Assembly: GCA_965262915.1 (NCBI GenBank)
Contig: OZ253564.1
Coordinates: forward strand, 3,680,001 to 3,744,000
Direction of reading: 5' to 3'
Length of the DNA stretch: 64,000 nucleotides
DNA from: Candidatus Spongiisociaceae bacterium
GTDB taxonomy: Bacteria; Actinomycetota; Acidimicrobiia; Spongiisociales; Spongiisociaceae
Made by a program: the position numbers and the translations under genes. Below the pieces are notes generated by a model. It searched no databases, was not told where the DNA came from, and saw only the letters and a list, made by a program, of their open reading frames with translations. Shown here one piece after another: positions 2,360 through 39,667 of the stretch. Positions within the stretch are counted from its first letter, which is position 1. Each line of letters begins with the position of its first letter.

Positions 2360-3709
2360 TTACCGGTCGAGGAGCCCTGCGTATTCGTCTGGTACCACCA
2401 TCCTGTCGATGCAGGTGAAGAAGCTCTCCGTAGCCTTAGCCAGCACTTCCTCCTCGTCGAAGATCAGGAACTGGCGCCCCTCCATCACCACGGTTCCGTC
2501 CACGATGGTGGTGTCGACCGCTGCGCTCTCGGTGCTGTAGACCAGGTGCGACATCAGGTGGGTCTTGTTGCCCGGCACCCAGGGGGTGAAGTGGTGGTTC
2601 TGCAGGTTGATGAGGATCACGTCCGCCACTTTGCCGACGCTCAACTCGCCCGTCTCGTGCCCGAGTGCCCGGGAGCCGTTCCTGGTCGCCATTCGCAGGA
2701 TTCCGGGTGCCTGCAGGATCGACGCGTCCCTGCGCTCGGCCCGATGCACCAGGGAGGCCCATTTCATCACCTGGAACAGGTCGCAGCTGTTGGTGCCTTC
2801 CGCCGAGTCGTGTCCGAGGCCGACGTTCAGTCCCGCTTCGAGCATCTCGGGCAACCGGGCGATGCCGTTGCCCAACTTGGCGTTGGAGGTCGGGTTGTGG
2901 GAGATGTGAGTTCCCGTCTCCCTCATCAGACCTATCTCCCGGTCGGACAGGTGAACGCAGTGGGCGGCCACGCAGTCGGGACCGAGTATCCCCGCGTCGT
3001 AGGCCACCTCGCTGGGCCGTCGGCCGCCGAAGGTCTGCATGGAGATCTCGACCTCGCCGAGGGACTCGTTGAGGTGGATGTGGATGCCGGTTCCCAACTC
3101 GTCGGCCAGCGCTCTGCAGTCGACCAGCAGGGCTTCGGAAGCGAGGGGCAGCCACTCTATACCCAGATAGACCTCCACCCTGCCGTCGCCCATCCCATGG
3201 CATTGGTGGTAGGCCGCCTCGTTGTCCTCGAGAACATCGATGCCGTGCTCCGGATCAGCAACCACGTTGGAGAGCACCACCCGCATTCCGCTGTCGACCG
3301 CGGCGCGAGCCAGGCCTGAGAGCCGGCGGAACATGTCGTTGGCTGTGGTCACCCCCGCCTTCAGCGACTCGCTGTAGCTGGCCATGGCCGCCCAGTAGGC
3401 CTCCTCGGGGTTGATGGACCGGATCATGGGGTACCAGAACGCCTGCAGGATCTCCCAGAGATCCAGATGGTCGCAGTATCCCTTTCCGATGGCGGTGTGG
3501 TAGTGGAGGTCGACGAAGCCCGGCAGGGCTGCCTTGCCACCGGCGTCGATCACTTTCGCATTCGTGCGGTCGAATCCGGAGGTCACTTCGGAACTTCCGA
3601 CCGCGACGATCCGGTTGCCTTCGATCACCATCGACCCGTCGAATACGACATCGTTGTTGTCGTTCATGGTCACGATGGCGGCGTTCTCGATGATGATCCG
3701 ATCAGCCAC
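2360..3709 (-). CDS. Amidohydrolase, TRZ/ATZ / MTA-SAH-deaminase-like
   Basis: PGFVDLHYH, HIHLNES, AAHCVHL, NPTSNAKL, GLGHD motifs; start taken at GTG 3709. Confidence 0.85.
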   Translation of the reverse strand: MADRIIIENAAIVTMNDNNDVVFDGSMVIEGNRIVAVGSSEVTSGFDRTNAKVIDAGGKAALPGFVDLHYHTAIGKGYCDHLDLWEILQAFWYPMIRSINPEEAYWAAMASYSESLKAGVTTANDMFRRLSGLARAAVDSGMRVVLSNVVADPEHGIDVLEDNEAAYHQCHGMGDGRVEVYLGIEWLPLASEALLVDCRALADELGTGIHIHLNESLGEVEISMQTFGGRRPSEVAYDAGILGPDCVAAHCVHLSDREIGLMRETGTHISHNPTSNAKLGNGIARLPEMLEAGLNVGLGHDSAEGTNSCDLFQVMKWASLVHRAERRDASILQAPGILRMATRNGSRALGHETGELSVGKVADVILINLQNHHFTPWVPGNKTHLMSHLVYSTESAAVDTTIVDGTVVMEGRQFLIFDEEEVLAKATESFFTCIDRMVVPDEYAGLLDR

Positions 3710-3795
3710 TTTCGCCTCGCTTTCGCTACTCGGATTCTCGGCCTGCAAGATACCCGGCGGCCCGGCGCAACTGCCAGGCGTCCACCCCCTCGGGT

Positions 3796-5352
3796 CTACC
3801 GCCGCATGGTACGGGCTGTCGGCCCCAGTTGCTCGGGGAGCACGGCGTAGGCATCCTCAATCCACTGGCACAGGATCGGTCTCGTCTGGCGGGGATCGAT
3901 TATCTCAGGAACCCCGAAGGCTTCCGCCGTCCGGAAAGGTGACGACAGCTCATCGTATTGCGCCTCCAACCGGGCAAGCCGTTCCCCGGCCTCGTGGGCC
4001 GGCAAAGCGTCGAGTTCCCGGCGGAAGGCGGCTCTCACCCCTCCCTGGATCGGGATCGAACCCCATCGGGCGGAAGGCCATGCGTAGTGCAGGTTCACGC
4101 CCTGCAGCCGCCCGTAGCTGGTACCGGCCAGACCGAAGAGCCGCCGGATGATCATGCCGCACCACGGAACCCGCGACTGCTCGATAGCCGAAATAAGCCG
4201 GATGGTGCCTCGCACCGCTCCTTCACGTTCGGCTTCCAGCCCGATCACGGTGCCGGGTTGGTCCACGAAGTTGACGATCGGGATGTGGAACGTGTCGCAC
4301 AGATCCACGAATGTCTCGACCTTCTCCGCGGCAGCACGGGTCAGACCACCCCCGAACCGGTAGGGATCGTTGGCGATCACCCCGACCGGATAGCCGTTGA
4401 GGCGGGCCAGCATCGTGATCGACGACGGCCCGTAGGCGGGAGCGATCTCGAAGAGCGAGTCATGGTCGAAGACCAGTGAGAGGAGCCGGCGCGAGTTGTA
4501 GACCCGCCGCTGGTTACGGGGGATGATCGCGGCCAGCCCCTCCTCGGCCCGGTCGGGCCTGTCGTCGCCGGGTAGGCGGGGCGGTATCTCGAAAACACTC
4601 TGGGGCAGATACGACAGGAACTCCTGCGCCTGCTCTATTGCCTCTTCCTCCGAGTCGGCCGCATTGTCGATGACCCCGCTCTGCTCGGTGTGGATGTGGG
4701 CGCCTCCGAGTTCCTCCTTGTCGATGTCCCGGCCCAGGGCCACGCGAGCCACCGGAGGGCCGGCCGCGAATACCTGGCTGGTTCCGCGGACCATCACCGA
4801 GAAGTGGCTGCTCGCGGCCTTCATACCACCGAGGCCGGCCGCCGGTCCCAGCACCAGAGCCACCACGGGTACGTAGCCGAGCATCCCGGCGAGGGGCCAC
4901 ATGCGGTACCCGGGAATCTTGGTTCGGCCCGTCTTCTCGAGTAGTCGGACGCTTCCCCCGACGTTCTCGACCAGACGGATCATCGGCATCCGCATCTCCA
5001 GCGCGTACCGGTTGATGAACTCCCACTTCTCCGATATCTGGGCTTCGGTGGAACCGCCCCTGATGGTGTAGTCGTCGGCTTCCACGGCTACTCGGCGACC
5101 CCGGACCCGACCAGTGCCGATGATGGTGTTGGCCGGCCTAACCTCCACAAGACCGCCTTCGGCATCGTAGGTTGCGGTTCCGGTGAAGGTTCCGATCTCC
5201 CTCCAGGTGCCCTCGTCGAGCAGCAGGCTGAGCCTCTCCCTGGCGGTGAGCCGACCTGCTCCGTGCTGGCGAGCGACGGACTCCTCCCCTCCCATCGAGA
5301 GCGCGAACGCCCTTCGGCGCTCCATCTCCTCGATCTCGGGGTCCCAGATCAA
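3796..5352 (-). CDS. Acyl-CoA carboxylase/decarboxylase carboxyltransferase subunit
   Basis: 'GRLTARERL', 'DYTIRGGS', 'FVDLCDTFHIPIVNFVDQPG', 'IIDPRQTR' motifs. Confidence 0.9.
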   Translation of the reverse strand: MIWDPEIEEMERRRAFALSMGGEESVARQHGAGRLTARERLSLLLDEGTWREIGTFTGTATYDAEGGLVEVRPANTIIGTGRVRGRRVAVEADDYTIRGGSTEAQISEKWEFINRYALEMRMPMIRLVENVGGSVRLLEKTGRTKIPGYRMWPLAGMLGYVPVVALVLGPAAGLGGMKAASSHFSVMVRGTSQVFAAGPPVARVALGRDIDKEELGGAHIHTEQSGVIDNAADSEEEAIEQAQEFLSYLPQSVFEIPPRLPGDDRPDRAEEGLAAIIPRNQRRVYNSRRLLSLVFDHDSLFEIAPAYGPSSITMLARLNGYPVGVIANDPYRFGGGLTRAAAEKVETFVDLCDTFHIPIVNFVDQPGTVIGLEAEREGAVRGTIRLISAIEQSRVPWCGMIIRRLFGLAGTSYGRLQGVNLHYAWPSARWGSIPIQGGVRAAFRRELDALPAHEAGERLARLEAQYDELSSPFRTAEAFGVPEIIDPRQTRPILCQWIEDAYAVLPEQLGPTARTMRR

Positions 5353-6254
5353 TTCGCCTCCGTCCCGGTCCCGACCCTAATCAGATCGGGAATGTCCTCC
5401 ACGCGCTCCGCTATCAGCGCACCGGCAGCCGCCAGGGTTTCGCGTTTCACCACCGCGCGGTCGGTATCGCGCTGCACCATCGCCGATACATGACCGAAGG
5501 AGGATCCGGCCGGGTAGGCGTCCTGGAACTCGCCCACGATCATCGCCACCACCGGTTTGGTCACCTCGCCGCGCTCCATAGCGGCGGTCAGACCGATCTC
5601 ATGCTCCGATCCGGGCTCGCCGAACACCACGATGCTGTGGGTGGTGTCGTCTGCCTCGAACCAGCGGGCGTACTCGGCCATGGTCCTTCCGGTGATCGCC
5701 TCCCCTCCCATCGCGACGCAGGTTGAAATGCCGCTTCCTGCCCTTGCCAGCACTAGGGCGATTTCTGCGGACATGCCTCCTGAACGGGAGCAGACACCCA
5801 CGCTTCCCGGCCGGAACATGTCACCGGGCCTGGGCCCACCGATGCCTCCCAGCTTCGTCTTACCAGGGGAGATGATGCCGTTGGTATTGAACCCGATCAG
5901 GACCGAACCGGCGTTCCGGGCGGCGAGGGCCGCCCTCCAGGCGTCTTGACGAGGAAGGTTCTCGGCGATGGCCACGATCGGCGAGAGCCCGGAGGAAGCC
6001 GCCTCGACCACGGCGCCCGCCGCGTAGCGGGCCGGCACGTACTGAACGGCTGCGTCGGCCCCGGTCACCTCGACAGCTTCGGCCACCGTGTCGAAGACCG
6101 GAACCCCCGATACCGACTGGCCACCCCGTCCGGGTGTCACGCCGGCCACGATCCGTGACCCGTAGTCCAGGCAGATCCGGGTGTCCAGCCGTCCCACCGA
6201 GCCGGTTATGCCCTGAACCAGAATACGGGTCCGCTCGTCGACCAGAATGCTCAC
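5349..6254 (-). CDS. Succinyl-CoA synthetase alpha-like subunit (ADP-forming acyl-CoA ligase), divergent
   Basis: 'MSILVDERTRILVQGITG', 'AGVTPGRGG', 'SRSGGM', phospho-His motif variant 'FGHVSAM'. Confidence 0.85.
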   Translation of the reverse strand: MSILVDERTRILVQGITGSVGRLDTRICLDYGSRIVAGVTPGRGGQSVSGVPVFDTVAEAVEVTGADAAVQYVPARYAAGAVVEAASSGLSPIVAIAENLPRQDAWRAALAARNAGSVLIGFNTNGIISPGKTKLGGIGGPRPGDMFRPGSVGVCSRSGGMSAEIALVLARAGSGISTCVAMGGEAITGRTMAEYARWFEADDTTHSIVVFGEPGSEHEIGLTAAMERGEVTKPVVAMIVGEFQDAYPAGSSFGHVSAMVQRDTDRAVVKRETLAAAGALIAERVEDIPDLIRVGTGTEAN

Positions 6255-6469
6255 CGGCGGCGTTCGATCCGCACGAGCGTATCACCGGCGTCGATAACGT
6301 CGCCCTCCGCCACCGGGATGTCCACCACTACTCCGGCCGCCGGTGCTAGGACCGGGATCTCCATCTTCATCGACTCGAGGATGAGCAGTTGCTCTCCGGG
6401 TTGCACCACTTCACCTTCGGTAACCGTGATCCTCCAGACGATCGACGCCATATCGGCGGTGACTCTCAC
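6251..6469 (-). CDS. Stand-alone biotin carboxyl carrier protein
   Basis: 'LESMKMEIPV.AP..GVV' biotinylation motif; GTG 6469 overlaps the upstream stop. Confidence 0.9.
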   Translation of the reverse strand: MRVTADMASIVWRITVTEGEVVQPGEQLLILESMKMEIPVLAPAAGVVVDIPVAEGDVIDAGDTLVRIERRR

Positions 6470-7614
6470 GGGCTGATCCTGACCAACGTGTCCACGGCGT
6501 CTCCAAGGCTCGCTCCGGGCGGAAGGTAGCGCAGACCGGCGCGGCCTGCCGCCAACCGCCGGGCCCGGTCGGCGTTGAGGCCCTCGAGCCGGATCACGAC
6601 CGGGATCGAGCCGTGCCCGTACCCCCATCTGTCCAACCCGGCCAGGAGCCTCTCGACGATGAGGTCGCACGGGGCCAACTGCAGGATGTTGAAGCTGACC
6701 AGCAGGCGCGAGAGGTTCGGATGGCCGAGGATGGCCTCGATGAGCACGTCCAGCTTCTCCGCCGAGACTCCCGCCCCCAGGTCACTGTGGTTGGCCGGTC
6801 GAACACCCGCTTCGACAAGCAGATCGTGCTGGTAGAGACCGGCGCCGCCCCCGCCCACCAGCAGCCCCGTGTCCCCATCGAGTTCCACGTAACGCACCGA
6901 AGCGCCGGGAAGCCGGCGGTCGGCTTGCGCCACCAAGGCCTCGCGTTCGCTGAGACCATCGGGGCGCCACTGGAGTTCCGGGTGTCTGAAGAGGGCGTTG
7001 CCGTCCACTTCGATCAGCCCTCCGACTGCGGTGAACGTCCCGTCGGCCGACATCGTCAGCGGGTTCAGCTCCACCAGCAGAGCATCGTCGAAGAAGACCC
7101 CCGCAGCGGCCACAGTCAGGTCGACCAGAGCGGAGGGAACCTGGTAGTCGCCGAGTGCCCGTCGCCAGAGATGTTCCGCCCTATCCCGGGTCAGGCTTGC
7201 GAGCCCTTCGATACCGAGATGGACCAACGCATCCCGGGAGTCTTCGATGTCCACACCTCCGTCGGCGGAGGCGGTGACTCGGGGACCGTGGGGGCCCCAC
7301 GAGAAGCCGAGATAGAGTTCTCGGGCAATCGCAAGGGCCTCCTCCACGTACACCGACCGGCAGCGGTAGCCCAGGATCCGGGTGTCGAGCAACTCATGCG
7401 CCGCTTGCGCTACTCCGGCCACCCCGATAGGACCTATCAAACCGTTGTTCTTCGACCGCCGGTTCGCCGGAACCAGGGCCTTGACGAACACCTCACCACC
7501 CAATGCCAGGGCGGCAGTCTCGGCGCCATCCGGTGTCTCGGCCACGGTTCCGCGAGGGACTCTCACCCCGGCACCGGCCAGGCGAGCCTTGGATTCGTGT
7601 TCCAGCAATCTCAT
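6466..7614 (-). CDS. Succinyl-CoA synthetase beta-like ATP-grasp subunit, divergent
   Basis: 'MRLLEHESKA', 'ELYLG', 'GGVDIE', 'LVELNPL', 'YVELDG..G..GGGAG', 'PANHSDLG'. Confidence 0.85.
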   Translation of the reverse strand: MRLLEHESKARLAGAGVRVPRGTVAETPDGAETAALALGGEVFVKALVPANRRSKNNGLIGPIGVAGVAQAAHELLDTRILGYRCRSVYVEEALAIARELYLGFSWGPHGPRVTASADGGVDIEDSRDALVHLGIEGLASLTRDRAEHLWRRALGDYQVPSALVDLTVAAAGVFFDDALLVELNPLTMSADGTFTAVGGLIEVDGNALFRHPELQWRPDGLSEREALVAQADRRLPGASVRYVELDGDTGLLVGGGGAGLYQHDLLVEAGVRPANHSDLGAGVSAEKLDVLIEAILGHPNLSRLLVSFNILQLAPCDLIVERLLAGLDRWGYGHGSIPVVIRLEGLNADRARRLAAGRAGLRYLPPGASLGDAVDTLVRISP

Positions 7615-8048
7615 CCCGGTACGGGCTCCGTCTCGGAGTGGTCTGCGTGAGGTTCGACCAGGCCCGTCAGGACTCCGTCGTTCGTAGCGGGATGGATGAA
7701 CACCCGGCTACCTCCGACATCCTCCATCGGGGTGCGAGAGACCAGGGCACAGCCCGCGGCCTCTGCGGCAGAGGTCGCCTCGGCCAGGGAACCGACCCGC
7801 AGGCAGAGGTGATGGAGGCCCTCGCCGCGCCGTGCCAGGAATCGGTCCAGGTCCGAGCCGTCCCTCGTCGACTCGAGGATCTCCACGTAGGCCGCACCGG
7901 AGCGCAGCAGATGGCTCCTGATCCCCCCCGGCAGGTCCTCGGTGCGAACCTCGACGAATCCCATCGTCGTGTAGCGGTCTTTCGCCGCCGTCGCGTCCCT
8001 GACCGCGATACCGACATGCTCGATGGCGACCACCGGCGATTCACCCAT
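7611..8048 (-). CDS. VOC-family protein, methylmalonyl-CoA epimerase-like
   Basis: 'IEHVGIAV', 'VEILE', 'FLARRGEGLHHLCLRV', 'FIHP..NDGVL..LVE'. Confidence 0.8.
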   Translation of the reverse strand: MGESPVVAIEHVGIAVRDATAAKDRYTTMGFVEVRTEDLPGGIRSHLLRSGAAYVEILESTRDGSDLDRFLARRGEGLHHLCLRVGSLAEATSAAEAAGCALVSRTPMEDVGGSRVFIHPATNDGVLTGLVEPHADHSETEPVPG

Positions 8049-9624
8049 TCGGGCGCTCCTGTTCGAAAACGGCGCGGTCGGTTGCGAGCTGCCGGAGGTC
8101 CGCCCTTCGTACCTTGCCGGTGACACCGCGTGGTATCGCCTCCACCACCACTACGGCCTCCGGACAGTGGATCGGCGGGATTCCGGCACGCTGGAGGAAC
8201 CCGGCCAGGTCTGCGGCGCGAGGTACGAAACCGGGCCGGGCTTGGACACATGCAACGGGCCGTTCCCCCAGACGGCGGTCGGATACGCCAACCACCACGG
8301 CGGCCTCCAACAGTTCATGGCGAGCCAGCGCCCGCTCCACTCTCTCGGCGGGTATGTTCTCCCCGCCCCGGATCACCATGTTATTGACCCTTCCGGTGAT
8401 CACCAGGTAACCGTCGCGGTCTGCGTAGCCGAGATCCCCGGTCCGGAAGAACCCCTCCTCGTCGATGGCTTCCCCAGGACTACCACCGTGGTAGCCGACC
8501 ATCAGGAACGGCCCCCGGAAGGCGATCTGACCTTCCTGTTCCCGGCCCAGCCGCTCCCCGTCGGGACCGAGTACCCGCATCTCGATCTCGGGATGAGGGT
8601 GACCTTCGGTTGTGAGGAGCTTGCCCGCGGGCGAGTCGGCCCGGGTGGAGCAGACGTGCCCGACCTCGGTCATCCCGAACGCCTTAGACATCCGGCCCGG
8701 CAGGTTGTTAAGCGCCTCCTGCGCCACGTCGGAGGCAAGTTTGGAGCCCGCGCAGGTGAACACTCGGAGCGAATCGAGACGTCCGCGCCAGGTCGAGCGG
8801 CAAGCCAGCAGATCCACCAGGAAGGCCGGGGGACCCGAGCTCACCGTGACCCCGTACCGCGCACACGCCTCCAGCATCAGGTCCGGCTTCCAGCGCGCCT
8901 GGAGCACCACATGGGCTCCGGCATGCAGGCCTAGCCGGACCCCGTAGAAATACCCGAAGTTGTGTCCGACGGGGAGGGCGACGTGCACGACGTCGGAAGC
9001 GTCTATCCCCTGTCTGGAAAGGGTGGAGAGAATACCGGCGCTGGCGGTGGCGTGCGTGTGGAGCACCCCTTTGGGAAGGCCCGTCGTCCCCGACGTGAAG
9101 GCCAGCTCGGCCAGGTCGTGCGGGCCGGGCGGGTCGGGCAGCCCTCCTGGCGGCCCGCCCCCGCCGAGCAGTTCGTCGAGCACCGGCCCCACCCCTCCGG
9201 GGGAGACAGACACGACAGGGGTGCTGCCTATGCCCTCGAGGGTGTCCGGGTCGTTGGCGGTCACCACCAGAGCCGGCCGGGCGAGCCCGGCTATCTCGGC
9301 GAATGCCTTGCCCTTGATCGCCGGGAGAACGGGTGACACCACCGCCCCGAGACGCTCGGCGGCGAGGAAAGCGGGAACGAACCGGCGCACTCCGTGCATC
9401 TGGACGATCACCACGTCGCCATGGCCGACACCCATCCGCCGGTACCGACCGGACAGACGGAGCGTGGCGTCGACCAGACGGCGATAGGTGTACCGGCCGT
9501 ATCCATCGGACACCGCGCTCGCATCGGACCGTTCCACGGCGTGGCGGGCCACATCGTCCCACAACGTTCGTTCGGGCCAGCGGAAGCCGGCCGGAACACG
9601 GTGCTGCCGTCGGAAGGATCTCAC
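8041..9624 (-). CDS. AMP-forming acyl-CoA synthetase (cyclohexanecarboxylate-CoA-ligase-like)
   Basis: 'FTSGTTGLPKGVLHTH', 'FGMTE', 'FRTGDLG', 'IRGGENI', 'TGKV'. Confidence 0.9.
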   Translation of the reverse strand: MRSFRRQHRVPAGFRWPERTLWDDVARHAVERSDASAVSDGYGRYTYRRLVDATLRLSGRYRRMGVGHGDVVIVQMHGVRRFVPAFLAAERLGAVVSPVLPAIKGKAFAEIAGLARPALVVTANDPDTLEGIGSTPVVSVSPGGVGPVLDELLGGGGPPGGLPDPPGPHDLAELAFTSGTTGLPKGVLHTHATASAGILSTLSRQGIDASDVVHVALPVGHNFGYFYGVRLGLHAGAHVVLQARWKPDLMLEACARYGVTVSSGPPAFLVDLLACRSTWRGRLDSLRVFTCAGSKLASDVAQEALNNLPGRMSKAFGMTEVGHVCSTRADSPAGKLLTTEGHPHPEIEMRVLGPDGERLGREQEGQIAFRGPFLMVGYHGGSPGEAIDEEGFFRTGDLGYADRDGYLVITGRVNNMVIRGGENIPAERVERALARHELLEAAVVVGVSDRRLGERPVACVQARPGFVPRAADLAGFLQRAGIPPIHCPEAVVVVEAIPRGVTGKVRRADLRQLATDRAVFEQERPNG

Positions 9625-10481: not shown

Positions 10482-10547
10482 GTACCCCTCCTCGCAGCGC
10501 GCCGGTAACTCCCGCATTATGGTCAGGTGGGGGAAAGGAGGATCACC

Positions 10548-12122: not shown

Positions 12123-12124
12123 CC

Positions 12125-31417: not shown

Positions 31418-31468
31418 TCGTTCACGTATTCCACTTCCGCGCCGCCTCCGACGGAGGCCTGATCGGGG

Positions 31469-32485
31469 ATGGACTCCGGCCTGTCCCGCCAGCTGGTCAT
31501 CAGGCTCCTGTTGGTGCTCCCCGTCATCTTCGGGGTGGTCACCCTGACCTTCCTGGTGTCACGGGTGTTCGCGCCCGATCCGGTAGCGCTCTATATCCCT
31601 CCGCAGGCCGATGAGGAGCTCCGCCAAAAGATCAGGGCCGAGTTGGGCTTCGACAAGTCGATCCCCGATCAGTACGCGGTCTTCCTCGCCGACCTCGCCC
31701 AGGGTGACTTGGGTGAATCGACGATCACGGGGCGGCCCGTCACGAGCGACCTGTGGGACCGTCTCCCCGCGACGATGGAGCTGGCCCTCTTGTCGCTCAC
31801 CTTCGCCGTCGTGGTCGGTGTCCCGCTGGGGGTACTGGCCGGCGCGAAGCGTGACGGCGCGGTGGACTTCTCCGTGAGAGGCATCACCCTGATCGGAATG
31901 GCGTTGCCGTCGTTCTGGCTCGGCCTCGTGCTCATCCTGATCTTCTTCGTGTATCTCGGTTGGTTACCCGGGCCGGTCGGCCGGCTTCCGCTCGGCGCCG
32001 CGGCACCCGACAAGATCACCGGGCTCTACACCCTCGACAGCCTCATTCAGGGCGACTTATCGATGTGGTGGGAATCGTTCCGCCACCTGATACTGCCGGG
32101 CGTCACGCTCGGGGTGGTGATCATGGCGCCGATCACGAGGGTGGCGCGCGCCTCGATGGTCGAGGTCATGCGCTCCGAGTACATCCGCACGCCCAAGGCG
32201 TTGGGCATCGGCAAGCAGACCATCTACTTCCGCTACGCCCTCAAGAACGCCCTATTGCCGATCATCACCATGATCGGAACGATCGTAGGCTTCGTCTTCA
32301 CCGGCGCGGTGCTCGTGGAGGCGGTCTTCAACTGGCCGGGCATGGGCAAGTACGGGCTGGACGCCATTGTCAAGTCCGATTTCACCGCGCTCCAGGGCTT
32401 TGTCGTGATCGCATCGGTTTCCTACATCGTGGCGTTCTTCCTGGTCGATGTCGTGTACATGCTGATAGACCCGAGGACGAGATGA
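31469..32485 (+). CDS. ABC permease (DppB-like)
   Basis: 'RLPATMELA', 'PSFWLG', EAA-loop region 'RASMVEV...EYIRT..ALG', 'VEAVFNWPGMG'. Confidence 0.9.
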   Translation: MDSGLSRQLVIRLLLVLPVIFGVVTLTFLVSRVFAPDPVALYIPPQADEELRQKIRAELGFDKSIPDQYAVFLADLAQGDLGESTITGRPVTSDLWDRLPATMELALLSLTFAVVVGVPLGVLAGAKRDGAVDFSVRGITLIGMALPSFWLGLVLILIFFVYLGWLPGPVGRLPLGAAAPDKITGLYTLDSLIQGDLSMWWESFRHLILPGVTLGVVIMAPITRVARASMVEVMRSEYIRTPKALGIGKQTIYFRYALKNALLPIITMIGTIVGFVFTGAVLVEAVFNWPGMGKYGLDAIVKSDFTALQGFVVIASVSYIVAFFLVDVVYMLIDPRTR

Positions 32486-32495
32486 GGAGGATGTC

Positions 32496-33401
32496 ATGAT
32501 CGACATGACGCGGGACCTGCTCCCGGAGGGCGATTCCTTGGATGCCATCGCCCCCGGGCGCACCAGGTGGGGGAAGATCCGTTACGTCTTCGGCCAAAGC
32601 AAGAGCCTGACGGCCGGGACGATCATCGTCGGCATATTCATCCTGATCGCGTTGCTCGCCAAGTTCATCACCACGTACGATCCCGGCGCCGTACTCACCG
32701 GCGCCCCGTTGTCCGGCCTCAGCGGCGAGCATTGGTTCGGCACCGACAAGGTGGGCTCGGACGTGTTCTCCAAGACGATTGCCGCCACCGCGCTCGATCT
32801 GCGGATCACGGTGTCGGCGGTGGTTACAGCCCTGGTGGCCGGTGTCGTGCTCGGTACTGTTGCCGGCTACTACGCCGGGATAGTCGACCTCGTCCTGCTG
32901 CGCCTCCTCGAGATCCTCCAGTCGATCCCGACCTTGCTGCTGGCGATGATGGTGGTGGTGGCCATCGGGCCCGGGGAGGCGAACGTGGTCGTGGTCATGG
33001 CCTTCATCGGCATGCCCTACTACGCGCGCCTGGTGCGGGCCGAGATCCTCACCAAGCGCACCTGGGAGTTCGCGGAGGCGGCTCGAATGGTGGGTGGATC
33101 GGCGATGCGGGTAGCCTTCCGCCATCTGCTCCCGAACAGCCTCTCGCCGGTACTGGCGTACGCGTCGGTCAACGCGGCGTGGGTGGTGCTGGTGACGGCC
33201 GCGCTCGGGTTCCTCGGCATCGGCATCGAACCGGGCACCGCCGAGTGGGGATCGATGATCGCCCGGGGGCAGACGGAGATCATCACCGGCGAGTGGTGGG
33301 TCTCCGTGTTTCCGGGGCTGTTCGTCCTTATCCTCACTGCGGGTTTCTACCTGCTCGGCGACGGCGTACGCGACGTGATGGACCCGAGGTCACGGAAGTG
33401 A
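32496..33401 (+). CDS. ABC permease (DppC-like)
   Basis: 'HWFGTD..G.DVFS', 'FAEAAR..G', 'HLLPN', 'EWGSMI'. Confidence 0.9.
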   Translation: MIDMTRDLLPEGDSLDAIAPGRTRWGKIRYVFGQSKSLTAGTIIVGIFILIALLAKFITTYDPGAVLTGAPLSGLSGEHWFGTDKVGSDVFSKTIAATALDLRITVSAVVTALVAGVVLGTVAGYYAGIVDLVLLRLLEILQSIPTLLLAMMVVVAIGPGEANVVVVMAFIGMPYYARLVRAEILTKRTWEFAEAARMVGGSAMRVAFRHLLPNSLSPVLAYASVNAAWVVLVTAALGFLGIGIEPGTAEWGSMIARGQTEIITGEWWVSVFPGLFVLILTAGFYLLGDGVRDVMDPRSRK

Positions 33402-33417
33402 AGGCAGGGAGGTTCTG

Positions 33418-34446
33418 ATGGCCGGGAACCTCGTCGAGATCCGCGACCTGCAGGGCTACTTCGACACGATCGGTGGGGAGGTCCATGCTCTCAACGGTGT
33501 CAGCTTCACCATCGAGGAGGGCAAGGTGACCGGCCTCGTCGGCGAGACCGGCTCCGGTAAGACGATGACCTCGCTCAACATCCCCCGCCTCATGCCGGAC
33601 AACTTCCGCTACATCTCGGGCCAGGTGCTGTTCCGCGGTAAAGACGTTCTCACCTGGCCGGAGGAGCGAATGGAACTCTTCCGCGGTGACGGTGTGGGTA
33701 TCGCCTTCCAGGATCCCAAGGCCGCCCTCAACCCGGTGTTCACGGTCGGGGAGCAACTCGGCCGCGCACTACGAACCCACACCGAGGCCACCAAGGGCGA
33801 GGCCAGGCAGGCGGCGCTCCGGATACTGGAACGGGTCAGGATCACCGACCCACGGCGCACCATCCGCCAGTACGCACACGAACTGAGCGGTGGTATGGCG
33901 CAGCGGGTCATGATCGCGCTGGCGGTGATCCACCCCCCCAAACTTCTGATCCTGGACGAGCCGACCACCGGGCTCGATGTCACGGTTCAGGCGGAGATCA
34001 TCTCCATGCTCCGGGACCTGGTCGAGTCCATGGGGCTTACGGTGCTGCTGATCACCCACGATCTCGGGGTGGTGGGCGAGTTATGTGACAACGTGGCGGT
34101 GATGTACGCCGGTCGGACCATGGAGTTCGGTGACATCAGCCAGATTTTCGAGCGACCCGCCAACCCGTACACGAGGGAACTCCTCCGATCTACCGAGAGC
34201 GTCGAGGGCGGGGTGGGGGACCTGTACAGCATCCGCGGCGCCCCGCCCGACCTCCGGAACCTGCCTCAGGGGTGTTTCTTCCAGGATCGTTGCCCGTCAG
34301 CAGAGGACATCTGCCGGACGGTTCCACCTGTGGTCGAAGTGGAGCCGGGCCACGTTTCGATGTGCCACTTCGCCGAGCGCTATCACTCGATGCCGGGACC
34401 TCTCCACATCACCAGGGGCGCCGACGCAGAAGGAGGCCGGGAGTGA
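33418..34446 (+). CDS. ABC ATPase (DppD-like)
   Basis: GETGSGKT, LSGGMAQR, DEPTT, C-terminal Cys cluster. Confidence 0.9.
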   Translation: MAGNLVEIRDLQGYFDTIGGEVHALNGVSFTIEEGKVTGLVGETGSGKTMTSLNIPRLMPDNFRYISGQVLFRGKDVLTWPEERMELFRGDGVGIAFQDPKAALNPVFTVGEQLGRALRTHTEATKGEARQAALRILERVRITDPRRTIRQYAHELSGGMAQRVMIALAVIHPPKLLILDEPTTGLDVTVQAEIISMLRDLVESMGLTVLLITHDLGVVGELCDNVAVMYAGRTMEFGDISQIFERPANPYTRELLRSTESVEGGVGDLYSIRGAPPDLRNLPQGCFFQDRCPSAEDICRTVPPVVEVEPGHVSMCHFAERYHSMPGPLHITRGADAEGGRE

Positions 34447-35273
34447 CGCCCGGCAGCAACGGAACTCTTCTCACGGTTCGAGGCCTCACCAAGCACTTCC
34501 ACCGGGGTGTCTGGCCCCGCAAGCAAACCATCGTGGCCGTCGACAATGTCGACCTCCATGTGACCAGAGGGGAGAGCGTCGGGCTGGTCGGCGAAAGCGG
34601 ATCCGGCAAGACGACCACGGCCCGCAGCATCCTGCGGCTGGTCGACCCGACCTCAGGTGAGATCGACTTCGACGGTATCCGGGTTGATCAGACCCCCAGA
34701 TACAGAGTACGCCGCCTCTACCGGAACATGCAGATGGTCTTCCAGGATCCGAACTCGTCGCTGAATCCGCGCATGACGGTGCGCGATATCGTCACCGAGC
34801 CCCTGAAGCTCCACCTGAACATGTCGGGTCGGGAACAGGAGGAACGGGCCAATGAGATAATGTCCCTGGTGGGTCTGCGCGGCTTCCACCTCGATCGATA
34901 TCCCGGCCAGCTCAGCGGAGGCCAGCGCCAGCGGGTCGGTATCGGTCGGGCAATAGCCACCCACCCCAAGCTGGTCTTCCTCGACGAGCCCACCTCCTCG
35001 CTCGACGTGTCGGTGCGGGGTCAGGTGATGCAGCTGCTGGTCGATCTGCAGCGGGAGATGAACATGTCCTACGTGCTCATCAGCCACGACCTCGGAGTGG
35101 TGCGGCAGCTCAGCAGGCGGGTGATGGTCATGTTCGACGGTCGTATCGTGGAGGAAGGCCCCACCCGGCAGGTGTTCGAGCATCCCCGAGACGACTACAC
35201 CAAGAGGCTGCTGGCGGCCATCCCGTCCATGGATGGCTACCGCCGCAGGAGACAGCAGGGAGGAACCAGGTGA
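34443..35273 (+). CDS. ABC ATPase (DppF-like)
   Basis: [21 protein letters not shown]. Confidence 0.9.
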
Positions 35274-36235
35274 GCCGTGTCGTAGACGCCCACATCCACA
35301 TCTTCCGGGAACCTTCCTGGAGTCCCGAATCGCAGAAGGCCATGCCCACCTCCTGGGTGAACCAGGTTCGGTGGTTCGACATGGACGCCGACGACGCCAA
35401 GCGCCGCTACCGGGAGTCGGTGGACGCCTGCTGGGATCCCGACGGCGCCAAGACCATCGCCCGCATGGACGAGGCCGGCGTGGATGTCTCGGTGACCATG
35501 CCGATGGACCGGGGGCTCCTCACCGGCGACGAGGGCGTCGTGCCCTTCGAGGAGAAGAACGAGGGCTACTACGAGCTCACCCGGATGTGGCCGGGACGCA
35601 TCTATTCCTTCTGCGGAGTTGATCCCCGCCGTCCGAACGCCGCGAAGTTCCTCGAGAAGGCGATCGTCGACTGGGGATTCCTGGGTCTCAAGCTGTACCC
35701 CACAACCGGGTTCTACCCCGACGACGAGATCGTCCATCCCCTTTACGAAGTCTGCCGTGAGTTCGACGTTCCGGTCCTGCTGCACCAGGGGCATTCAGGC
35801 GGCCGTCTCAAGAGCAAGTACGGTCACCCGATGTACGTGGACTCGGCGGCGGCGGACTTCCCCGAGGTACGTTTCATCCTCGGCCACGGCGCCCGTTTCG
35901 AAACCTGGGCGAAGGAAGCCATGAGCGTGGCGATCTACAAGACCAACGTCCACCTCGAGATCAGCCTCTGGCAGCACTGGGCCAGCGTCGACGACCTGGT
36001 GAGGACCTTCGTCTGGATCAGGGACCGGATCGGCATCGACAGGTTGCTGTTCGGCAGCGACATGACCAACGTCGAGGTGTCCATGACGTTGAAGGAATGG
36101 GTGGACGTGATCCGTATGCTGCCGGAGTGGGCCAAACAACTCGGGTTCCGCCTCAGTCAAGAGGAGATCAACCTTGTCCTCGGTGGCAATACCGAGCGCG
36201 TGTACCGGATCCCACCGGTCGAGGAATCCGAGTAA
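35270..36235 (+). CDS. Amidohydrolase_2 family, close paralog of 12125/15425
   Basis: DAHIH, '[11 protein letters not shown]', 'PVLLHQGHS', 'LFGSDM'; collinear with copies 1 and 2 but with ordinary high-GC codons. Confidence 0.85.
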
Positions 36236-36272
36236 CCGGTATGAGATCGTCCCAAGCGACCAAGGAGACCCG

Positions 36273-36920
36273 ATGAGCTGGACCCACTACATGTACGAGC
36301 AGACCAAGGACATGTGGGAAAGGATCTACGAACACCCATTCCTGAGAGACTTGGCGGCCGGAACTCTCTCCGACGAGCGCCTCGCGTTCTATTTCGAGCA
36401 GAACACCCACTACATCAACAACGTGGTGAAGTGCCGCTCGATCGCGACGGCCAAGGCCCACAACAACGAGATACGGGACTTCTTCCTGAGCCGCACGGCG
36501 ATGGTGGTGGACGAGCTCTACCACCAAGAGGACATGTTGCGCCGGGTCGGCGGCCAGGCCGGCGCCCGGATCGCCCCCACCTGCCATGCCTACACCCGCC
36601 ACATCCTCAACCTGGTGTGGACGAAGGACCCGGTCGAGTACCTCGGGTCGTTCATGCCGTGCCCGTGGACGTATGACGAGATCGGGATCCAGTTGCGCAG
36701 CGCCGATCTCCAAGGCGCGCCCGCCGAGTGGTGGGAGTTCTACATGAGCGTGGAACACAACGAACTGGTGGCCAACTACCGCGCATTCGTGGACAAGTAC
36801 TCCGAGGGCCTATCGGATGAGCGGCGGCAGCAGATGCTGGACAACTTCATCATCAGCACCAACTACGAGTACCGGTTCTGGGACATGGCCTACAACCTCG
36901 AACAATGGCCCCTCGGCTAG
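36273..36920 (+). CDS. tenA: TenA family protein (Cys-type, QN variant), paralog 3
   Basis: 'HPFL.DL..GTL', 'YFEQN', 'MPCPWTYDEIG', 'YEYRFWDMAY'. Confidence 0.85.
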   Translation: MSWTHYMYEQTKDMWERIYEHPFLRDLAAGTLSDERLAFYFEQNTHYINNVVKCRSIATAKAHNNEIRDFFLSRTAMVVDELYHQEDMLRRVGGQAGARIAPTCHAYTRHILNLVWTKDPVEYLGSFMPCPWTYDEIGIQLRSADLQGAPAEWWEFYMSVEHNELVANYRAFVDKYSEGLSDERRQQMLDNFIISTNYEYRFWDMAYNLEQWPLG

Positions 36921-36933
36921 GTCGGGTGCACCC

Positions 36934-38490
36934 GTGAGCCGCCTGCTTGTCGTCGGGGACCCGGTCGTAGCGCTGGCCGGAAGCCATAGCGATATCGTCA
37001 CCGACGGTGCGTTGATCATCGAAGGCCGCCGGGTCGAGGCGCTGGGACGTCGCGAAGATCTCGAGAAACGGGGTCCTTTCGACCGCGTGGTCGGCTCGCC
37101 GCAACACGTCGTGATGCCCGGGTTCATCAACGGGCACTTCCATTCGATGGGGGCAGGTTCACCCGGCCTGTTCCAGTACGTCTTCGAGCGGATGAACACC
37201 CGTATCTTCCGCCGTGCCCTCACCGACGAGGACAGCAGAACCATCATCCTGGTGGCTCTGATGCGGGCGATCCGAGGCGGCCAGACCGGCGCCGTGGACT
37301 TCAACTACGGCAACCCCTCGCTGGCCGACTTCGGCAACCCTCCGATCCTCGACGCCTACCGCACCATCGGGATGCGGGTGGCTCTCGGCATGGTTACTCG
37401 CGACCAGAACATCTACGTCCATGCCCCCGACGAGGTGTTCCTGGCCTCCCTACCTGAGGATCTCGCCCGCCAGGTACGGGAATCGACCATGGGATACGCC
37501 TGGCCCACCGACGATGTGGTGGCGGCCTACCGGCGGGTCCACGCCGAGTGGGACGGCTGCGACGGGCGGCTACGGGTGATCCTCGCCCCGGATTGGACGC
37601 CCGCCTGCTCGGACGAGCTCTACCTGCTTAACCGCCGCCTGGCGGATGAGTACGACACCGGTATCACGACCCATCTGCTCGAGACCCGCTCCGAGATGCT
37701 GTTCAACCTCGAGGCCTACGGCAAAACCGCCATGCGGAGGCTGGCCGATATCGGCGTGCTCGGACCTGACGTGAGTTGTGCCCACTTCGTCTGGGCAACC
37801 GATGAGGACATCCGGATCCTGGCCGACACCGGAGCGGTCGCGGTGAACAACCCCGGATCGAACCTGCGCCTGAGCACAGGCATAGCCCGCGCCCGTGACA
37901 TACTCGACTCGGGAGCCGCGCTGGCGTTCGGAACCGACTCGATCTCCTTCTCGGATGTGGAGGACTTCTTCCAGGAGTTGCGTCTCGCCATGTACCTGCA
38001 GCGCATTCCCGCCGAGTTGGAGATCGGACGGCTGGACTCGCTCGAAGTGCTCCGCCGAGCGGCCGCGAGCGGCGCCCGGGCGATCCGCCAGGAAGAGGCC
38101 TTGGGGTCGCTGGCCGAGGGGAAGGAGGCGGATCTGCTAGTGCTCAACAAGGAACGCCTCCTCTGGCCACCACCCAAATACGCGTCGGTTCCGATCCTGG
38201 ATGTCCTTGTTGACCGGGCCACCGGATCCGATCTGGAGACCGTCATGATCGCCGGACGGATCGTTCTCGACGACGGGCGGTTCACCACCGTCGACGAGGA
38301 GCGGATCCTGGCCGACTTCGCCGGGGCAGGAAAAGACCGGCTCTGGGTAGCGACCGAACAGGGGCGGAGAGAGGCCCGGTTGGCGGCCGATGTCGAGCCG
38401 TACGTCCTCGACTTCTATCGTGAGTGGGCGCTGAAGCCGCTGACCCCGGCGTACACGTACAACGCTCGAGTCCCGCCCCAGGAGAGATAG
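36934..38490 (+). CDS. Deaminase-like amidohydrolase, paralog C
   Basis: PGFINGHFH, APDWTPACSDELY, THLLE, HFVWATD, FGTD. Confidence 0.85.
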   Translation: MSRLLVVGDPVVALAGSHSDIVTDGALIIEGRRVEALGRREDLEKRGPFDRVVGSPQHVVMPGFINGHFHSMGAGSPGLFQYVFERMNTRIFRRALTDEDSRTIILVALMRAIRGGQTGAVDFNYGNPSLADFGNPPILDAYRTIGMRVALGMVTRDQNIYVHAPDEVFLASLPEDLARQVRESTMGYAWPTDDVVAAYRRVHAEWDGCDGRLRVILAPDWTPACSDELYLLNRRLADEYDTGITTHLLETRSEMLFNLEAYGKTAMRRLADIGVLGPDVSCAHFVWATDEDIRILADTGAVAVNNPGSNLRLSTGIARARDILDSGAALAFGTDSISFSDVEDFFQELRLAMYLQRIPAELEIGRLDSLEVLRRAAASGARAIRQEEALGSLAEGKEADLLVLNKERLLWPPPKYASVPILDVLVDRATGSDLETVMIAGRIVLDDGRFTTVDEERILADFAGAGKDRLWVATEQGRREARLAADVEPYVLDFYREWALKPLTPAYTYNARVPPQER

Positions 38491-38492
38491 AG

Positions 38493-39290
38493 ATGTCGTT
38501 CACGATCACCCCGCTGGTAATGGCCTACGGACCCCAGCGGGAAAAGTCCCGTTTCACTTTTCTGCACAACTTCGGAGAGAAGATCGACCTCCCCTACGTT
38601 TCCTGGCTCATCCAGGACTCCGAGCGGGGCCTCAACGTGCTGGTCGATGTCGGGTGCAGCGCGGAGGAATACACGAACCACATCAAGCCCCCAGGAGAAA
38701 CCAGATTGCGGCACGCCGGTGAGGAATTCGCCGACGTCATCAACATCCGTCCTCTCGACCAGCTGCTGGCCGACCGCGGGCTCGACACCGGCGACATCGA
38801 CTTCATCGTCCTCACCCACCTGGATTGGGACCACTGCATGAACCTGCCCCTGTTTTCCGACACGCGGGTGATCGTCCAGCGGAAGGAGTGGGACGCTCTC
38901 CCACCCCATCCGTTCATAGCCTCAGGGTTCGCTCCCGATTACCGGTACCAGGAGATGGCGATACAGGGGATCGAACTTATCGAAGGCGACCAGCAGCTGG
39001 TTCCGGGATTGGATGTGCTCTTCACGCCCGGACACACGCCGGGCGGACAGTCGATCGCGGTTGAGACACCGAGAGGCCGCTACGTGATCGCCGGCCTCTG
39101 CACGATATGGGAGAACTACTTCCCAGACCCCGAGATCCTCAAGACCGCCAAGTACGAGGTAATCCCCCCGGGGGGCCACACCGACCTGTTCGCCGCCTAC
39201 AACAGCGTGGTGCGGATCCGTGACGAAGCGGGTACCCAGCTGCTTCCGGCCCACCATCTCGAGGCGTTCGATATGGAGCCGATCGCTTGA
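38493..39290 (+). CDS. MBL-fold lactonase-like hydrolase with variant metal ligands
   Basis: LVDVG, THLDWDH, TPGHTPG, PAHH. Confidence 0.8.
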   Translation: MSFTITPLVMAYGPQREKSRFTFLHNFGEKIDLPYVSWLIQDSERGLNVLVDVGCSAEEYTNHIKPPGETRLRHAGEEFADVINIRPLDQLLADRGLDTGDIDFIVLTHLDWDHCMNLPLFSDTRVIVQRKEWDALPPHPFIASGFAPDYRYQEMAIQGIELIEGDQQLVPGLDVLFTPGHTPGGQSIAVETPRGRYVIAGLCTIWENYFPDPEILKTAKYEVIPPGGHTDLFAAYNSVVRIRDEAGTQLLPAHHLEAFDMEPIA

Positions 39291-39667
39291 GCCTCTCGAG
39301 CGAAGAATCCGGTAACCGGGGTCTGGTAGCGGCTATGGTCGACGCGCTCAACGAGGCCGACATCGACCGGTTCGTCTCCTACTACACCGACGATGTCGAG
39401 GTGGACATCCTCCGCTTCGGACGGCATCTGAAGGGCGCCCGAGCCGTGGGGAAATGGATCGAGGACGCCTTCGATGCCCTCGATGGGTTCTGCAACGACA
39501 TCATCGGAATCTACGGGGACGGCGAGACGATCGCCTTGGAGGTGATCGCCCGCGGCACGGCTACGCGGCCGTTCGCGGGCAGGGAGGTTGGCGAACCTCT
39601 CGACGCTCACGAGGTGTACATCTACACCTTCCGTGACGGAAAGATCGCCGATGTCCGCGCCTACTAG
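39287..39667 (+). CDS. SnoaL/NTF2-like protein
   Basis: 126 aa; 'A.N..DID....YTDD', 'YTFRDGKI..VRAY'. Confidence 0.8.
   Translation: MSLSSEESGNRGLVAAMVDALNEADIDRFVSYYTDDVEVDILRFGRHLKGARAVGKWIEDAFDALDGFCNDIIGIYGDGETIALEVIARGTATRPFAGREVGEPLDAHEVYIYTFRDGKIADVRAY

Follow-up and report, generated by a model that had tools for sequence, protein, structure and literature searches.

A candidate island for the degradation of thiamine-type pyrimidines, marked by Asn-type TenA genes, in a sponge-associated member of the Acidimicrobiia

We analyzed a stretch of 64,000 nucleotides (the window) from Candidatus Spongiisociaceae bacterium, in which three TenA genes stand among amidohydrolase genes, an ABC importer and an operon for CoA metabolism. 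The window is the segment 3,680,001-3,744,000 (64% G+C) of a single-contig genome of 5.06 Mb that is 96% complete, and its nearest relatives are labelled sponge-associated Acidimicrobiia or Candidatus Spongiisociaceae. The analysis establishes a conserved gene set around TenA proteins that carry Asn in place of a substrate-binding Asp (Asn-type TenA), the absence of a thiamine pyrophosphate (TPP) riboswitch and of thiamine salvage in the host, and an association with importers of the ThiY type. On this basis the island most likely degrades thiamine-type pyrimidines, namely FAMP (N-formyl-4-amino-5-aminomethyl-2-methylpyrimidine), HMP (4-amino-5-hydroxymethyl-2-methylpyrimidine), amino-HMP or the corresponding 4-oxo compounds, either as a source of nitrogen and carbon or to detoxify them, and we hold this reading with moderate confidence.

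Genes were called as open reading frames (ORFs) with a filter on G+C content at third codon positions (GC3), protein families were assigned with Pfam and NCBIfam, and RNA families were accepted at the Rfam gathering score. Several ORF starts are probably too far upstream, namely those of TenA2, TenA3, the long amidohydrolases and HyuB. An earlier sequence-only reading had proposed an undescribed catabolic pathway at 2360-39667, and every gene on its list was recovered at its place. The genes are as follows, with family assignments from Pfam unless another source is given.

2360-3748, minus strand: AH1s, short TRZ/ATZ-type Amidohydro_1 protein; below all NCBIfam equivalog cut-offs; last gene of the CoA operon
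3796-5352, minus strand: carboxyltransferase of the methylmalonyl-CoA decarboxylase alpha / propionyl-CoA carboxylase beta type; TIGR01117 302 bits, cut-off 999
5349-6254 and 6466-7614, minus strand: SucD-like and SucC-like subunits of an ADP-forming acid-CoA ligase
7611-8126, minus strand: glyoxalase-fold protein, candidate (methyl)malonyl-CoA epimerase; 35% identity to the soil-cluster Glx protein
8041-9624, minus strand: AMP-forming acyl-CoA ligase; no NCBIfam cut-off reached
9621-10862, minus strand: MBL_a, hydrolase of the metallo-beta-lactamase (MBL) fold
10527-12122, plus strand: AH1L paralogue b, long TRZ/ATZ-type Amidohydro_1 protein; catalytic motifs kept
12038-13093, plus strand: Amidohydro_2 (AH2) paralogue a; DxHxH, H, H, D kept
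13162-14709, minus strand: amidase-signature amidase; below NCBIfam cut-offs
14652-15428, plus strand: short-chain dehydrogenase/reductase (SDR) a
15416-16393, plus strand: Amidohydro_2 paralogue b, a recent duplicate of a
17234-17770, minus strand: C-terminal amidase fragment of 178 aa; profile positions 321-445 only
17980-18981, minus strand: AH2c, Amidohydro_2 protein of the type kept beside AH1s and AH1L in soil operons, 64-74% identity
19065-20792, plus strand: AH1L paralogue c; its stop overlaps the TenA1 start
20789-21457, plus strand: TenA1, Asn-type; thiaminase II equivalog TIGR04306 168.9 bits, cut-off 130
21468-23501 and 23359-25125, plus strand: HyuA and HyuB, ATP-dependent lactamase/hydantoinase pair
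25071-26087, minus strand: F420-type LLM oxidoreductase; TIGR03619 245.5 bits, cut-off 166.9
26132-27235, plus strand: Zn-dependent alcohol dehydrogenase (ADH); Pfam and NCBIfam
27808-28569, minus strand: SDR b, divergent from the importer operon and kept in relatives
28412-29314, plus strand: TenA2, Asn-type; TIGR04306 76.8 bits, under the cut-off; domain from about residue 93, true start probably about 28676
29451-35273, plus strand: Dpp-type ABC importer with an SBP_bac_5 substrate-binding protein (SBP, 29451-31358), two permeases and two ATPases
35270-36235, plus strand: Amidohydro_2 paralogue d
36174-36920, plus strand: TenA3, Asn-type; TIGR04306 117.8 bits, under the cut-off; probable start 36294
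36817-38490, plus strand: AH1L paralogue d; probable start 36937
38424-39290, plus strand: MBL_b, MBL-fold lactonase-like protein; weak AiiA and 4-pyridoxolactonase matches under the cut-offs
39287-39667, plus strand: SnoaL-like protein, last gene of the conserved operon, kept in relatives
39909-40616, plus strand: CDA-fold deaminase; follows SnoaL in three relatives (L029, L030, L035) at 81-86% identity

The CDA-fold deaminase is possibly part of the island. The genes from the AMP-forming ligase through the epimerase and the SucC/SucD-like ligase to the carboxyltransferase form a minus-strand CoA operon at 3796-9624. The long amidohydrolases b, c and d are 54-60% identical to one another, while AH1s is 26-28% identical to them; among the AH2 paralogues, identity is 96% between a and b, 62% between d and either of them, and 28% between AH2c and the others. 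A recent local duplication relates 12038-14709 to 15416-17770, where the amidase copy has become the 178-aa fragment (84% identical) and a GNAT gene (16513-17001) lies between. Judged from these identities, part of the gene richness of the window is paralogy and recent duplication, with AH1L, AH2, TenA and MBL genes recurring as modules. A further long-amidohydrolase paralogue, 48% identical to AH1L d, lies at genome 2665903-2667438 on the minus strand.

TenA1, TenA2 and TenA3 score 143.3, 59.0 and 95.6 bits with TENA_THI-4 against a Pfam cut-off of 22, and the genome holds only one more, TenA4 at genome 992,355. In all four, Cys137 and Glu207 are invariant, and Cys137 aligns with the catalytic Cys of Bacillus subtilis TenA (Cys135; Glu205). 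The same alignment places Asn (Asn45 in TenA1) in all four where the TenAs of B. subtilis and Helicobacter pylori have Asp44. According to sections of PMC5623701, Asp44 is hydrogen-bonded to the amino groups of bound HMP phosphate (HMP-P) and is among the most family-specific residues; mutation D44A strongly impairs TenA and C135A inactivates it. For the TenA cleavage that had been proposed from the sequence, the fold, the Cys and the Glu are kept, but with the non-canonical Asn at position 44 it is uncertain whether thiamine or amino-HMP is the direct substrate.

Among the best 150 representatives of 2,874 TenA1 relatives drawn from 1.84 billion proteins, residue 44 is Asp in 124 and Asn in 22. 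In 102 TenA-like ORFs from the loci that we collected (L006-L104), Asn is present in all TenAs of the sponge operons and the compact soil operons, and Asp in those of Bacillus, Clostridiales and archaea; several Solirubrobacterales, Nocardioides and other loci contain both types. A quick maximum-likelihood tree of 89 distinct TenAs (64 Asn, 25 Asp) required three label changes, as few as in none of 500 shuffles, which is consistent with a possible single origin of the Asn type. At three loci TenA is translationally coupled to amidohydrolase genes. Both types share one cluster in L080, L087, L090, L092, L094, L101, L104, L116-L120, L124, L125, L129 and L152 (Solirubrobacterales, Gaiellales, Nocardioides and other Actinomycetota), often flanking a ThiY-like transporter from both sides, and this arrangement suggests two successive or parallel TenA reactions.

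To see how far the gene set is conserved, loci were collected in two ways. A search seeded with the alignment of the three AH1L proteins, with one genome per species, returned 77 loci, consisting of 22 close relatives and 55 distant loci (below 80% identity to the window copies). The distant loci belong to soil and freshwater Actinomycetota (Streptosporangiaceae, Frankia, Parafrankia, Nocardioides, Solirubrobacterales, Gaiellales, Acidimicrobiia) and to one metagenome-assembled genome of Dormiibacterota. The counts below are for all distant loci and then for the 34 of them that span at least 19 kb.

AH1s: 44/55; 29/34
TenA: 38/55; 29/34
AH2c: 38/55; 25/34
GntR: 38/55; 29/34
LLM: 34/55; 25/34
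ADH: 33/55; 23/34
CoA-transferase: 28/55; 22/34
M20: 21/55; 18/34
Aldehyde dehydrogenase (ALDH): 20/55; 16/34
Epimerase: 18/55; 14/34

An acyl-CoA mutase also recurs in the distant clusters. Since the same families are found together in dozens of distant genomes, the grouping is not due to chance, and we rejected chance co-localization on these synteny counts. The clustering of TenA with deaminase-type amidohydrolases and Amidohydro_2 proteins elsewhere, which the sequence-only reading had named as a check, is borne out in soil Actinomycetota, and the functional coupling of the genes is supported with it.

In its compact soil form (L058, L053, L056), the operon has by Pfam the order M20, a small ORF, acyl-CoA mutase, CoA_transf_3 (family III), M20, LLM, glyoxalase-fold epimerase, GntR/FCD, TenA, Zn-ADH, ALDH, AH1s, AH1L and AH2c. 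The window AH1s, which keeps HxH, HxxE, H and D, is the orthologue of the short amidohydrolase of this operon and shares 65% identity with its L058 version. The Frankia-type loci (L056, L059, L060, L066, L082, L093) contain all operon genes except TenA, ADH and ALDH; the operon therefore appears to be modular, TenA, ADH and ALDH forming an upper module and the remaining genes a lower one. The AH1L-HyuA-HyuB grouping is also present in L087 and L094.

The second search was seeded with TenA and gave 80 loci, which the alignment divided into 21 with an Asn-type TenA and 59 with Asp-type only. When neighbours within 8 kb were considered, at least two pathway genes accompanied TenA at 20/21 Asn-type loci and 1/59 Asp-only loci, and AH1s or AH1L at 12/21 and 0/59, respectively. 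A ThiD-like gene followed the opposite pattern, with 0/21 and 8/59. The Asn-type TenA is thus a marker of the conserved cluster. Close sponge relatives account for eight of the 21 Asn-type loci and Actinomycetota for all the others, so the counts are not independent events.

Two further gene families were seen around these clusters. An AAT family gene (acyl-CoA:6-aminopenicillanic acid acyltransferase / Ntn-hydrolase) accompanies the variants that carry HyuAB (L087 15250-16359, L094 15947-17952, also L080 and L104), and in L094 the next gene belongs to the polysaccharide-deacetylase family. A two-domain rhodanese (sulfurtransferase) lies in or beside Asn-type TenA clusters at genome 3653497-3654357, L087 19459-20583, L104 about 15367-16164 and L037 about 972-1781. 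Any connection of this gene with the sulfur half of thiamine, though tempting, would be speculation.

The island is larger than the region first delimited. The listed genes do lie within 2360-39667, but the island runs on for about 29 kb upstream of the window, and key genes of the set (ADH, ALDH, M20, mutase, CoA-transferase, a second LLM and an epimerase) are located 18-29 kb upstream. At genome 3,650,625-3,662,300 we found orthologues of the soil operon for ADH (63%), ALDH (66%), CoA-transferase (58%), M20 (49%), LLM (59%) and epimerase (56%), and the same block holds the mutase large subunit, a second M20 and a rhodanese. The order over genome 3650625-3667601 is ADH, ALDH, rhodanese, M20, a 320-aa protein (weak M29 match), acyl-CoA mutase large subunit, CoA-transferase, M20, LLM, epimerase and then three different transposase genes, which stand between this block and the window. 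Insertion sequences appear to have split the island. We consider it fairly probable that the window holds most of a catabolic island of about 70 kb (genome about 3,650,600-3,720,600), and, with similar confidence, that this island is an expanded and rearranged form of the compact GntR-controlled operon of soil Actinomycetota. AH1L was present in 7/7 other genomes of the genus and 2/8 of one sister genus, and was not found in the remaining searched genera of the family or in 16 genomes drawn from the order's other families; this patchy distribution fits an acquired island.

At the left edge, Gp49/HigB-like toxin genes occupy window 506-1149 and 1327-1677, one of them followed by a helix-turn-helix (HTH) antitoxin-like gene; such genes are typical of mobile or unstable regions. 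To the right, 42266-45630 contains a phosphotriesterase-family gene, a xylose-isomerase-like TIM-barrel gene and an SGL/gluconolactonase-like gene. Two more ABC importers follow: 46808-52081 encodes a second SBP_bac_5 system and 54626-57563 a permease-ATPase-permease set. The 634-aa ORF ahead of that set (52589-54493; high GC3, no Pfam match) is possibly an unusual binding protein. On the minus strand, 61544-63983 carries three tandem alpha/beta-hydrolase genes, the third with partial Pfam matches only. Four metatranscriptome runs from a single sponge study gave contigs, 90-99% alike, that map on TenA2, most of the SBP gene, DppB, AH2_d, TenA3, MBL_b, SnoaL, ADH and TenA1/HyuA. We do not count them as evidence of expression, as DNA carry-over is possible; the contigs cannot rank the genes, and the parts that they leave uncovered carry no meaning.

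The context of thiamine salvage was searched for in the host and at the collected loci. No Rfam family reached its gathering score in the window, and no TPP riboswitch was detected in the 5.06-Mb genome, for which 150 of 327 candidates were scored. The riboswitch was found at 5/8 canonical TenA loci of Bacillota, about 1.4-1.5 kb upstream of TenA and in most cases upstream of the operon. None was found at the 10 Asn-type loci scanned, at a further 7 Asn-type loci, or in 7 further sources that include the fourth TenA locus of the genome and the upstream island. ThiE (PF02581), ThiN (PF10120) and ThiC (PF01964) were not found in the 96%-complete genome, ThiG gave short, weak matches only, none of them convincing, and one Phos_pyr_kin (ThiD/PdxK-type) gene was identified. 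Across 8 genomes of the genus, ThiE is present in 0/8 and TenA in 8/8. Without ThiE, ThiN, ThiC or a TPP riboswitch, salvage is excluded in the host, and these sponge-associated Acidimicrobiia appear to be thiamine auxotrophs. The lack of a riboswitch and of thiE and thiC, noticed earlier for the window, recurs in the genome as searched, and the lack of a riboswitch extends to the Asn-type loci scanned.

A link to thiamine pyrimidines is provided by the importers of some cluster variants. L087 and L090 include an NMT1/THI5-family SBP (PF09084, 200.5 and 173.9 bits) with permease and ATPase, located between TenA genes, and the only solved relatives of the L087 protein are 4nmy (an unnamed SBP), the FAMP-binding ThiY (3ix1, 1.8e-32) and THI5/THI13. 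Relatives of this SBP occur at 14/77 AH1L loci, and at 10/21 Asn-type and 18/59 Asp-only TenA loci. The fourth TenA locus (genome 988010-993002; L108 3010-8002) consists of a ThiY-like SBP (988010-989281; PDB 3ix1 at 6.6e-17), a permease, a gene similar to AH1s (47% identity) and, as the last gene, TenA4, with a presumed ATPase gene between the permease and the AH1s-like gene; the TenA4 start overlaps the stop of the AH1s-like gene, and a DUF1989 gene comes next on the opposite strand. The class of these binding proteins fits thiamine-type pyrimidines as putative ligand. For the window SBP (29451-31358), the PDB relatives are generic family-5 binding proteins only, so no ligand can be inferred.

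The amidohydrolases are conserved in their catalytic residues and distant from named families. In AH1s and AH1L alike, the HxH, HxxE, His and Asp residues typical of mononuclear deaminase-type amidohydrolases are conserved, and AH1L carries two insertions and a C-terminal extension. Their solved relatives are methylthioadenosine/S-adenosylhomocysteine (MTA/SAH) deaminase, 8-oxoguanine deaminase / hydroxyatrazine hydrolase and atrazine chlorohydrolase, and for the long protein the ESM Atlas returned generic amidohydrolase names only. The Amidohydro_2 proteins score 105-121 bits with PF04909, with the metal ligands DxHxH, H, H and D invariant. Their assignment as uracil-5-carboxylate decarboxylase (IDCase) was rejected as unsupported: phmmer gave no PDB match to IDCase at E<=0.01, and in a Foldseek search with the AlphaFold model of AH2c (pLDDT 63.9) IDCase ranked 40-50, behind ACMSD, salicylate decarboxylase, LigW, dihydroxybenzoate decarboxylase and LigJ. 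The low pLDDT makes this fold ranking weak. The Amidohydro_2 proteins resemble the broad ACMSD-type decarboxylase/hydratase group and are not specifically close to IDCase.

Among the remaining enzymes, HyuA and HyuB contain Hydantoinase_A with its N and C domains and Hydantoinase_B, and reach 435.6 and 229.8 bits with the caprolactamase equivalog (cut-off 1000). The window LLM protein scores 51 bits with the RutA equivalog TIGR03612 (cut-off 498). The closest solved relative of the mutase is the large subunit of 2-hydroxyisobutyryl-CoA mutase (521 bits), with methylmalonyl-CoA mutases at 448 bits.

We propose the following route, in which every step is inferred from gene content. The substrate would be imported by the Dpp-type transporter, or by a ThiXYZ-type system at the fourth locus and in other genomes. 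A TRZ/ATZ-type amidohydrolase would then strip the 4-amino group hydrolytically, after which the Asn-type TenA would perform a Cys-dependent hydrolysis of the C5-CH2-X bond to yield a 5-hydroxymethyl pyrimidine. The change from Asp to Asn would suit a 4-oxo over a 4-amino ring, and together with the tight pairing with deaminases it suggests that TenA acts after deamination. ADH and ALDH would oxidize the 5-hydroxymethyl group to the 5-carboxylate; the counterpart with the amino group still present is, in sections of PMC11223231, a known orphan product of thiamine. Ring processing and opening might involve AH1L, Amidohydro_2 (as a decarboxylase or as a hydratase/hydrolase), HyuAB and LLM, and M20 and the amidase would cleave amides. 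The earlier idea of LLM as the ring reductase is a guess, and so is the order of the steps. The C4-C5(-C7)-C6 fragment would be a substituted malonate or an isobutyrate-shaped skeleton. As a malonate-type acid it would become a CoA ester through the transferase or the ligases and pass through epimerase and carboxyltransferase or mutase into central metabolism.

Two parts of the route that were proposed from the sequence gain support from the distant clusters. Alcohol oxidation is favoured by the position of ADH and ALDH directly after TenA in the compact soil operon, and an ending of the (methyl)malonyl-CoA type by the conserved CoA-transferase, epimerase and acyl-CoA mutase. The ThiY-type binding proteins of some variants likewise strengthen the suggested link to thiamine pyrimidines. 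As for the novelty that had been claimed, our literature check gave no gene set for thiamine or HMP breakdown; it left most subscription journals and supplements uncovered, so that absence is unproven.

Comparison with known systems places the cluster near salvage at its entry and near catabolism in what follows. The nearest system is ThiXYZ-YlmB-TenA salvage of Bacillus, with which it shares the entry chemistry of a TenA-fold Cys hydrolase with Cys and Glu, a ThiY-like SBP, permease and ATPase in some variants (SBP and permease at the fourth locus), and, in the operon, an M20 amidohydrolase, M20 being the family of YlmB. It differs in having Asn for Asp44, a GntR regulator instead of a TPP riboswitch and no ThiD/ThiE partner, in a genome without ThiE. 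ADH, ALDH, two deaminase-type amidohydrolases, Amidohydro_2 and CoA enzymes follow TenA, which argues that the product is destroyed and not reused.

Fungal thymidine salvage employs thymine 7-hydroxylase and isoorotate (uracil-5-carboxylate) decarboxylase. There too a one-carbon substituent at pyrimidine C5 is oxidized stepwise to a carboxylate that an Amidohydro_2 protein is available to remove, but here NAD(P)-dependent ADH and ALDH would take the place of a 2-oxoglutarate dioxygenase, and the Amidohydro_2 proteins are not specifically IDCase-like. The hydrolytic s-triazine pathway (AtzA/B/C, TrzN, TriA) similarly applies successive mononuclear amidohydrolases of the TRZ/ATZ family to an N-heterocycle; in our cluster no equivalog cut-off is met, there is no equivalog of cyanuric acid hydrolase or allophanate hydrolase, and TenA, ADH and ALDH would have no place in that pathway. 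As in the reductive, Rut and oxidative barbiturate routes for pyrimidines, the ring would be opened and the carbon passed to (methyl)malonyl-type metabolism, and an LLM protein is present like RutA in the Rut pathway. However, the LLM protein lies far under the RutA cut-off, no dihydropyrimidinase or barbiturase is among the annotated genes, and TenA entry is unique to the cluster. Catabolic clusters are known for other vitamins, for pyridoxine in Mesorhizobium and for riboflavin in Microbacterium. The island resembles them as a dedicated cluster that would mineralize a vitamin, with an MBL protein weakly like 4-pyridoxolactonase, and differs in the vitamin and the enzymes.

Several observations weigh against the degradation of thiamine-type pyrimidines. 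With Asn for Asp44 the TenAs may not act on thiamine or amino-HMP, and TenA1 alone passes the thiaminase II cut-off. The window's own importer has a generic family-5 SBP and not one of the ThiY type. AH1s and AH1L reach at best 200-330 bits where the NCBIfam equivalogs compared (guanine, 8-oxoguanine, MTA/SAH and 5'-deoxyadenosine deaminases and the Atz enzymes) have cut-offs of 520-610, and no window Amidohydro_2 protein matched any NCBIfam model. The likeness of the mutase to 2-hydroxyisobutyryl-CoA mutase suggests that a branched C4 skeleton is kept, a poor fit with early decarboxylation by Amidohydro_2. The Frankia-type loci keep the lower genes without the upper module, so that the core may serve a different heterocycle or a wider range of them. 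The synteny counts were drawn from related Actinomycetota and do not represent independent events. Given the scarcity of thiamine compounds in nature, an investment of 70 kb is puzzling.

Some of these observations would be explained if the same architecture served another 5-(X-methyl)pyrimidine, such as the antivitamin bacimethrin or an aminomethyl or hydroxymethyl uracil or cytosine from modified nucleic acids. In that case two hydrolases of the TRZ/ATZ type would each take a substituent off the ring (for example a 4-amino group and a 2-methoxy or 2-amino group), with Amidohydro_2 as decarboxylase of the 5-carboxylate. According to sections of PMC5623701, Asp44 binds the 4-amino group of HMP-P; this residue is Asn in every cluster-linked TenA of the sponge and compact soil operons. 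Two distinct deaminase-type amidohydrolases are kept side by side, and the expanded paralogues of the sponge lineage point to several related substrates. TenA2 and TenA3, which fall under the thiaminase II cut-off, and an importer in the window that is not ThiY-like agree with this. However, ThiY-like SBPs, whose solved relatives are only the FAMP-binding ThiY, the unnamed SBP and THI5, are found in several clusters and at the fourth locus, canonical Asp-type TenAs stand in the same clusters in several genomes, and uracil as a product would leave the conserved CoA-transferase, mutase and epimerase unnecessary. We regard such a substrate as rather unlikely.

A different purpose is also conceivable, in which the island destroys toxic thiamine-like pyrimidines (HMP as 'toxopyrimidine', or antimetabolites of the oxythiamine or bacimethrin type) and shields an obligate thiamine auxotroph, the CoA genes merely disposing of the fragments. 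The low concentrations of such compounds argue against a growth substrate. The host and its genus lack ThiE, and the host also ThiC and ThiN, so that it depends on imported thiamine; and sections of PMC11223231 note that some breakdown products of thiamine are toxic and describe the routes of their detoxification as unknown. Against this, dedicated high-affinity importers and full funnelling into CoA metabolism resemble the use of a nutrient, it would be unusual to take up a toxin only to destroy it, and the evidence for auxotrophy comes from the host and its genus. Detoxification as the sole purpose seems to us improbable.

Ordinary pyrimidine salvage by TenAs that merely lie inside an unrelated amidohydrolase-rich island is scarcely credible: TenA1 does pass the thiaminase II model and the genome does hold a ThiD/PdxK-type gene, but ThiE, ThiN, ThiC and the riboswitch went undetected in the genome and ThiE in all 8 genomes of the genus, three loci have TenA in translational coupling with amidohydrolase genes, pathway genes accompany nearly all Asn-type and almost no Asp-only loci, and the riboswitch, frequent at canonical loci, adjoins no scanned Asn-type TenA.

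We therefore return to the degradation of thiamine-type pyrimidines as the preferred reading. The final destruction of thiamine and its fragments in nature is an old open question. In 2024 the fate of the 5-carboxylate and related products of thiamine was still given as unknown in sections of PMC11223231. The conserved operon and the diagnostic Asp44-to-Asn signature of TenA make the question directly testable, and the operon is present in cultured Nocardioides, with the lower module in Frankia and Parafrankia. Nocardioides soli DSM 105498 and Nocardioides sp. LHD-245 each carry both TenA types, a ThiXYZ-like importer and a long amidohydrolase, with AH2c and GntR observed in LHD-245 alone, whereas Frankia sp. 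EI5c and Parafrankia sp. EUN1f represent the lower module only. A bolder form of the proposal, which we offer tentatively, is that this would be the first genetically defined bacterial route to mineralize the pyrimidine half of vitamin B1. In it a hitherto unrecognized Asn-type TenA subfamily and a TRZ/ATZ deaminase would work together on deaminated (4-oxo) pyrimidines and lead through the 'orphan' 5-carboxylate to a substituted malonyl-CoA, in a route widespread in soil Actinomycetota and amplified several-fold in B1-auxotrophic sponge symbionts. If true, it would add a sink term to the cycling of vitamin B1 in soils, oceans and animal holobionts, the annotation 'TenA' need not mean salvage, and functions would be assigned to large unannotated subfamilies of amidohydrolases. 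The B1-auxotrophic sponge symbionts would then be net consumers of the vitamin breakdown products of their host community.

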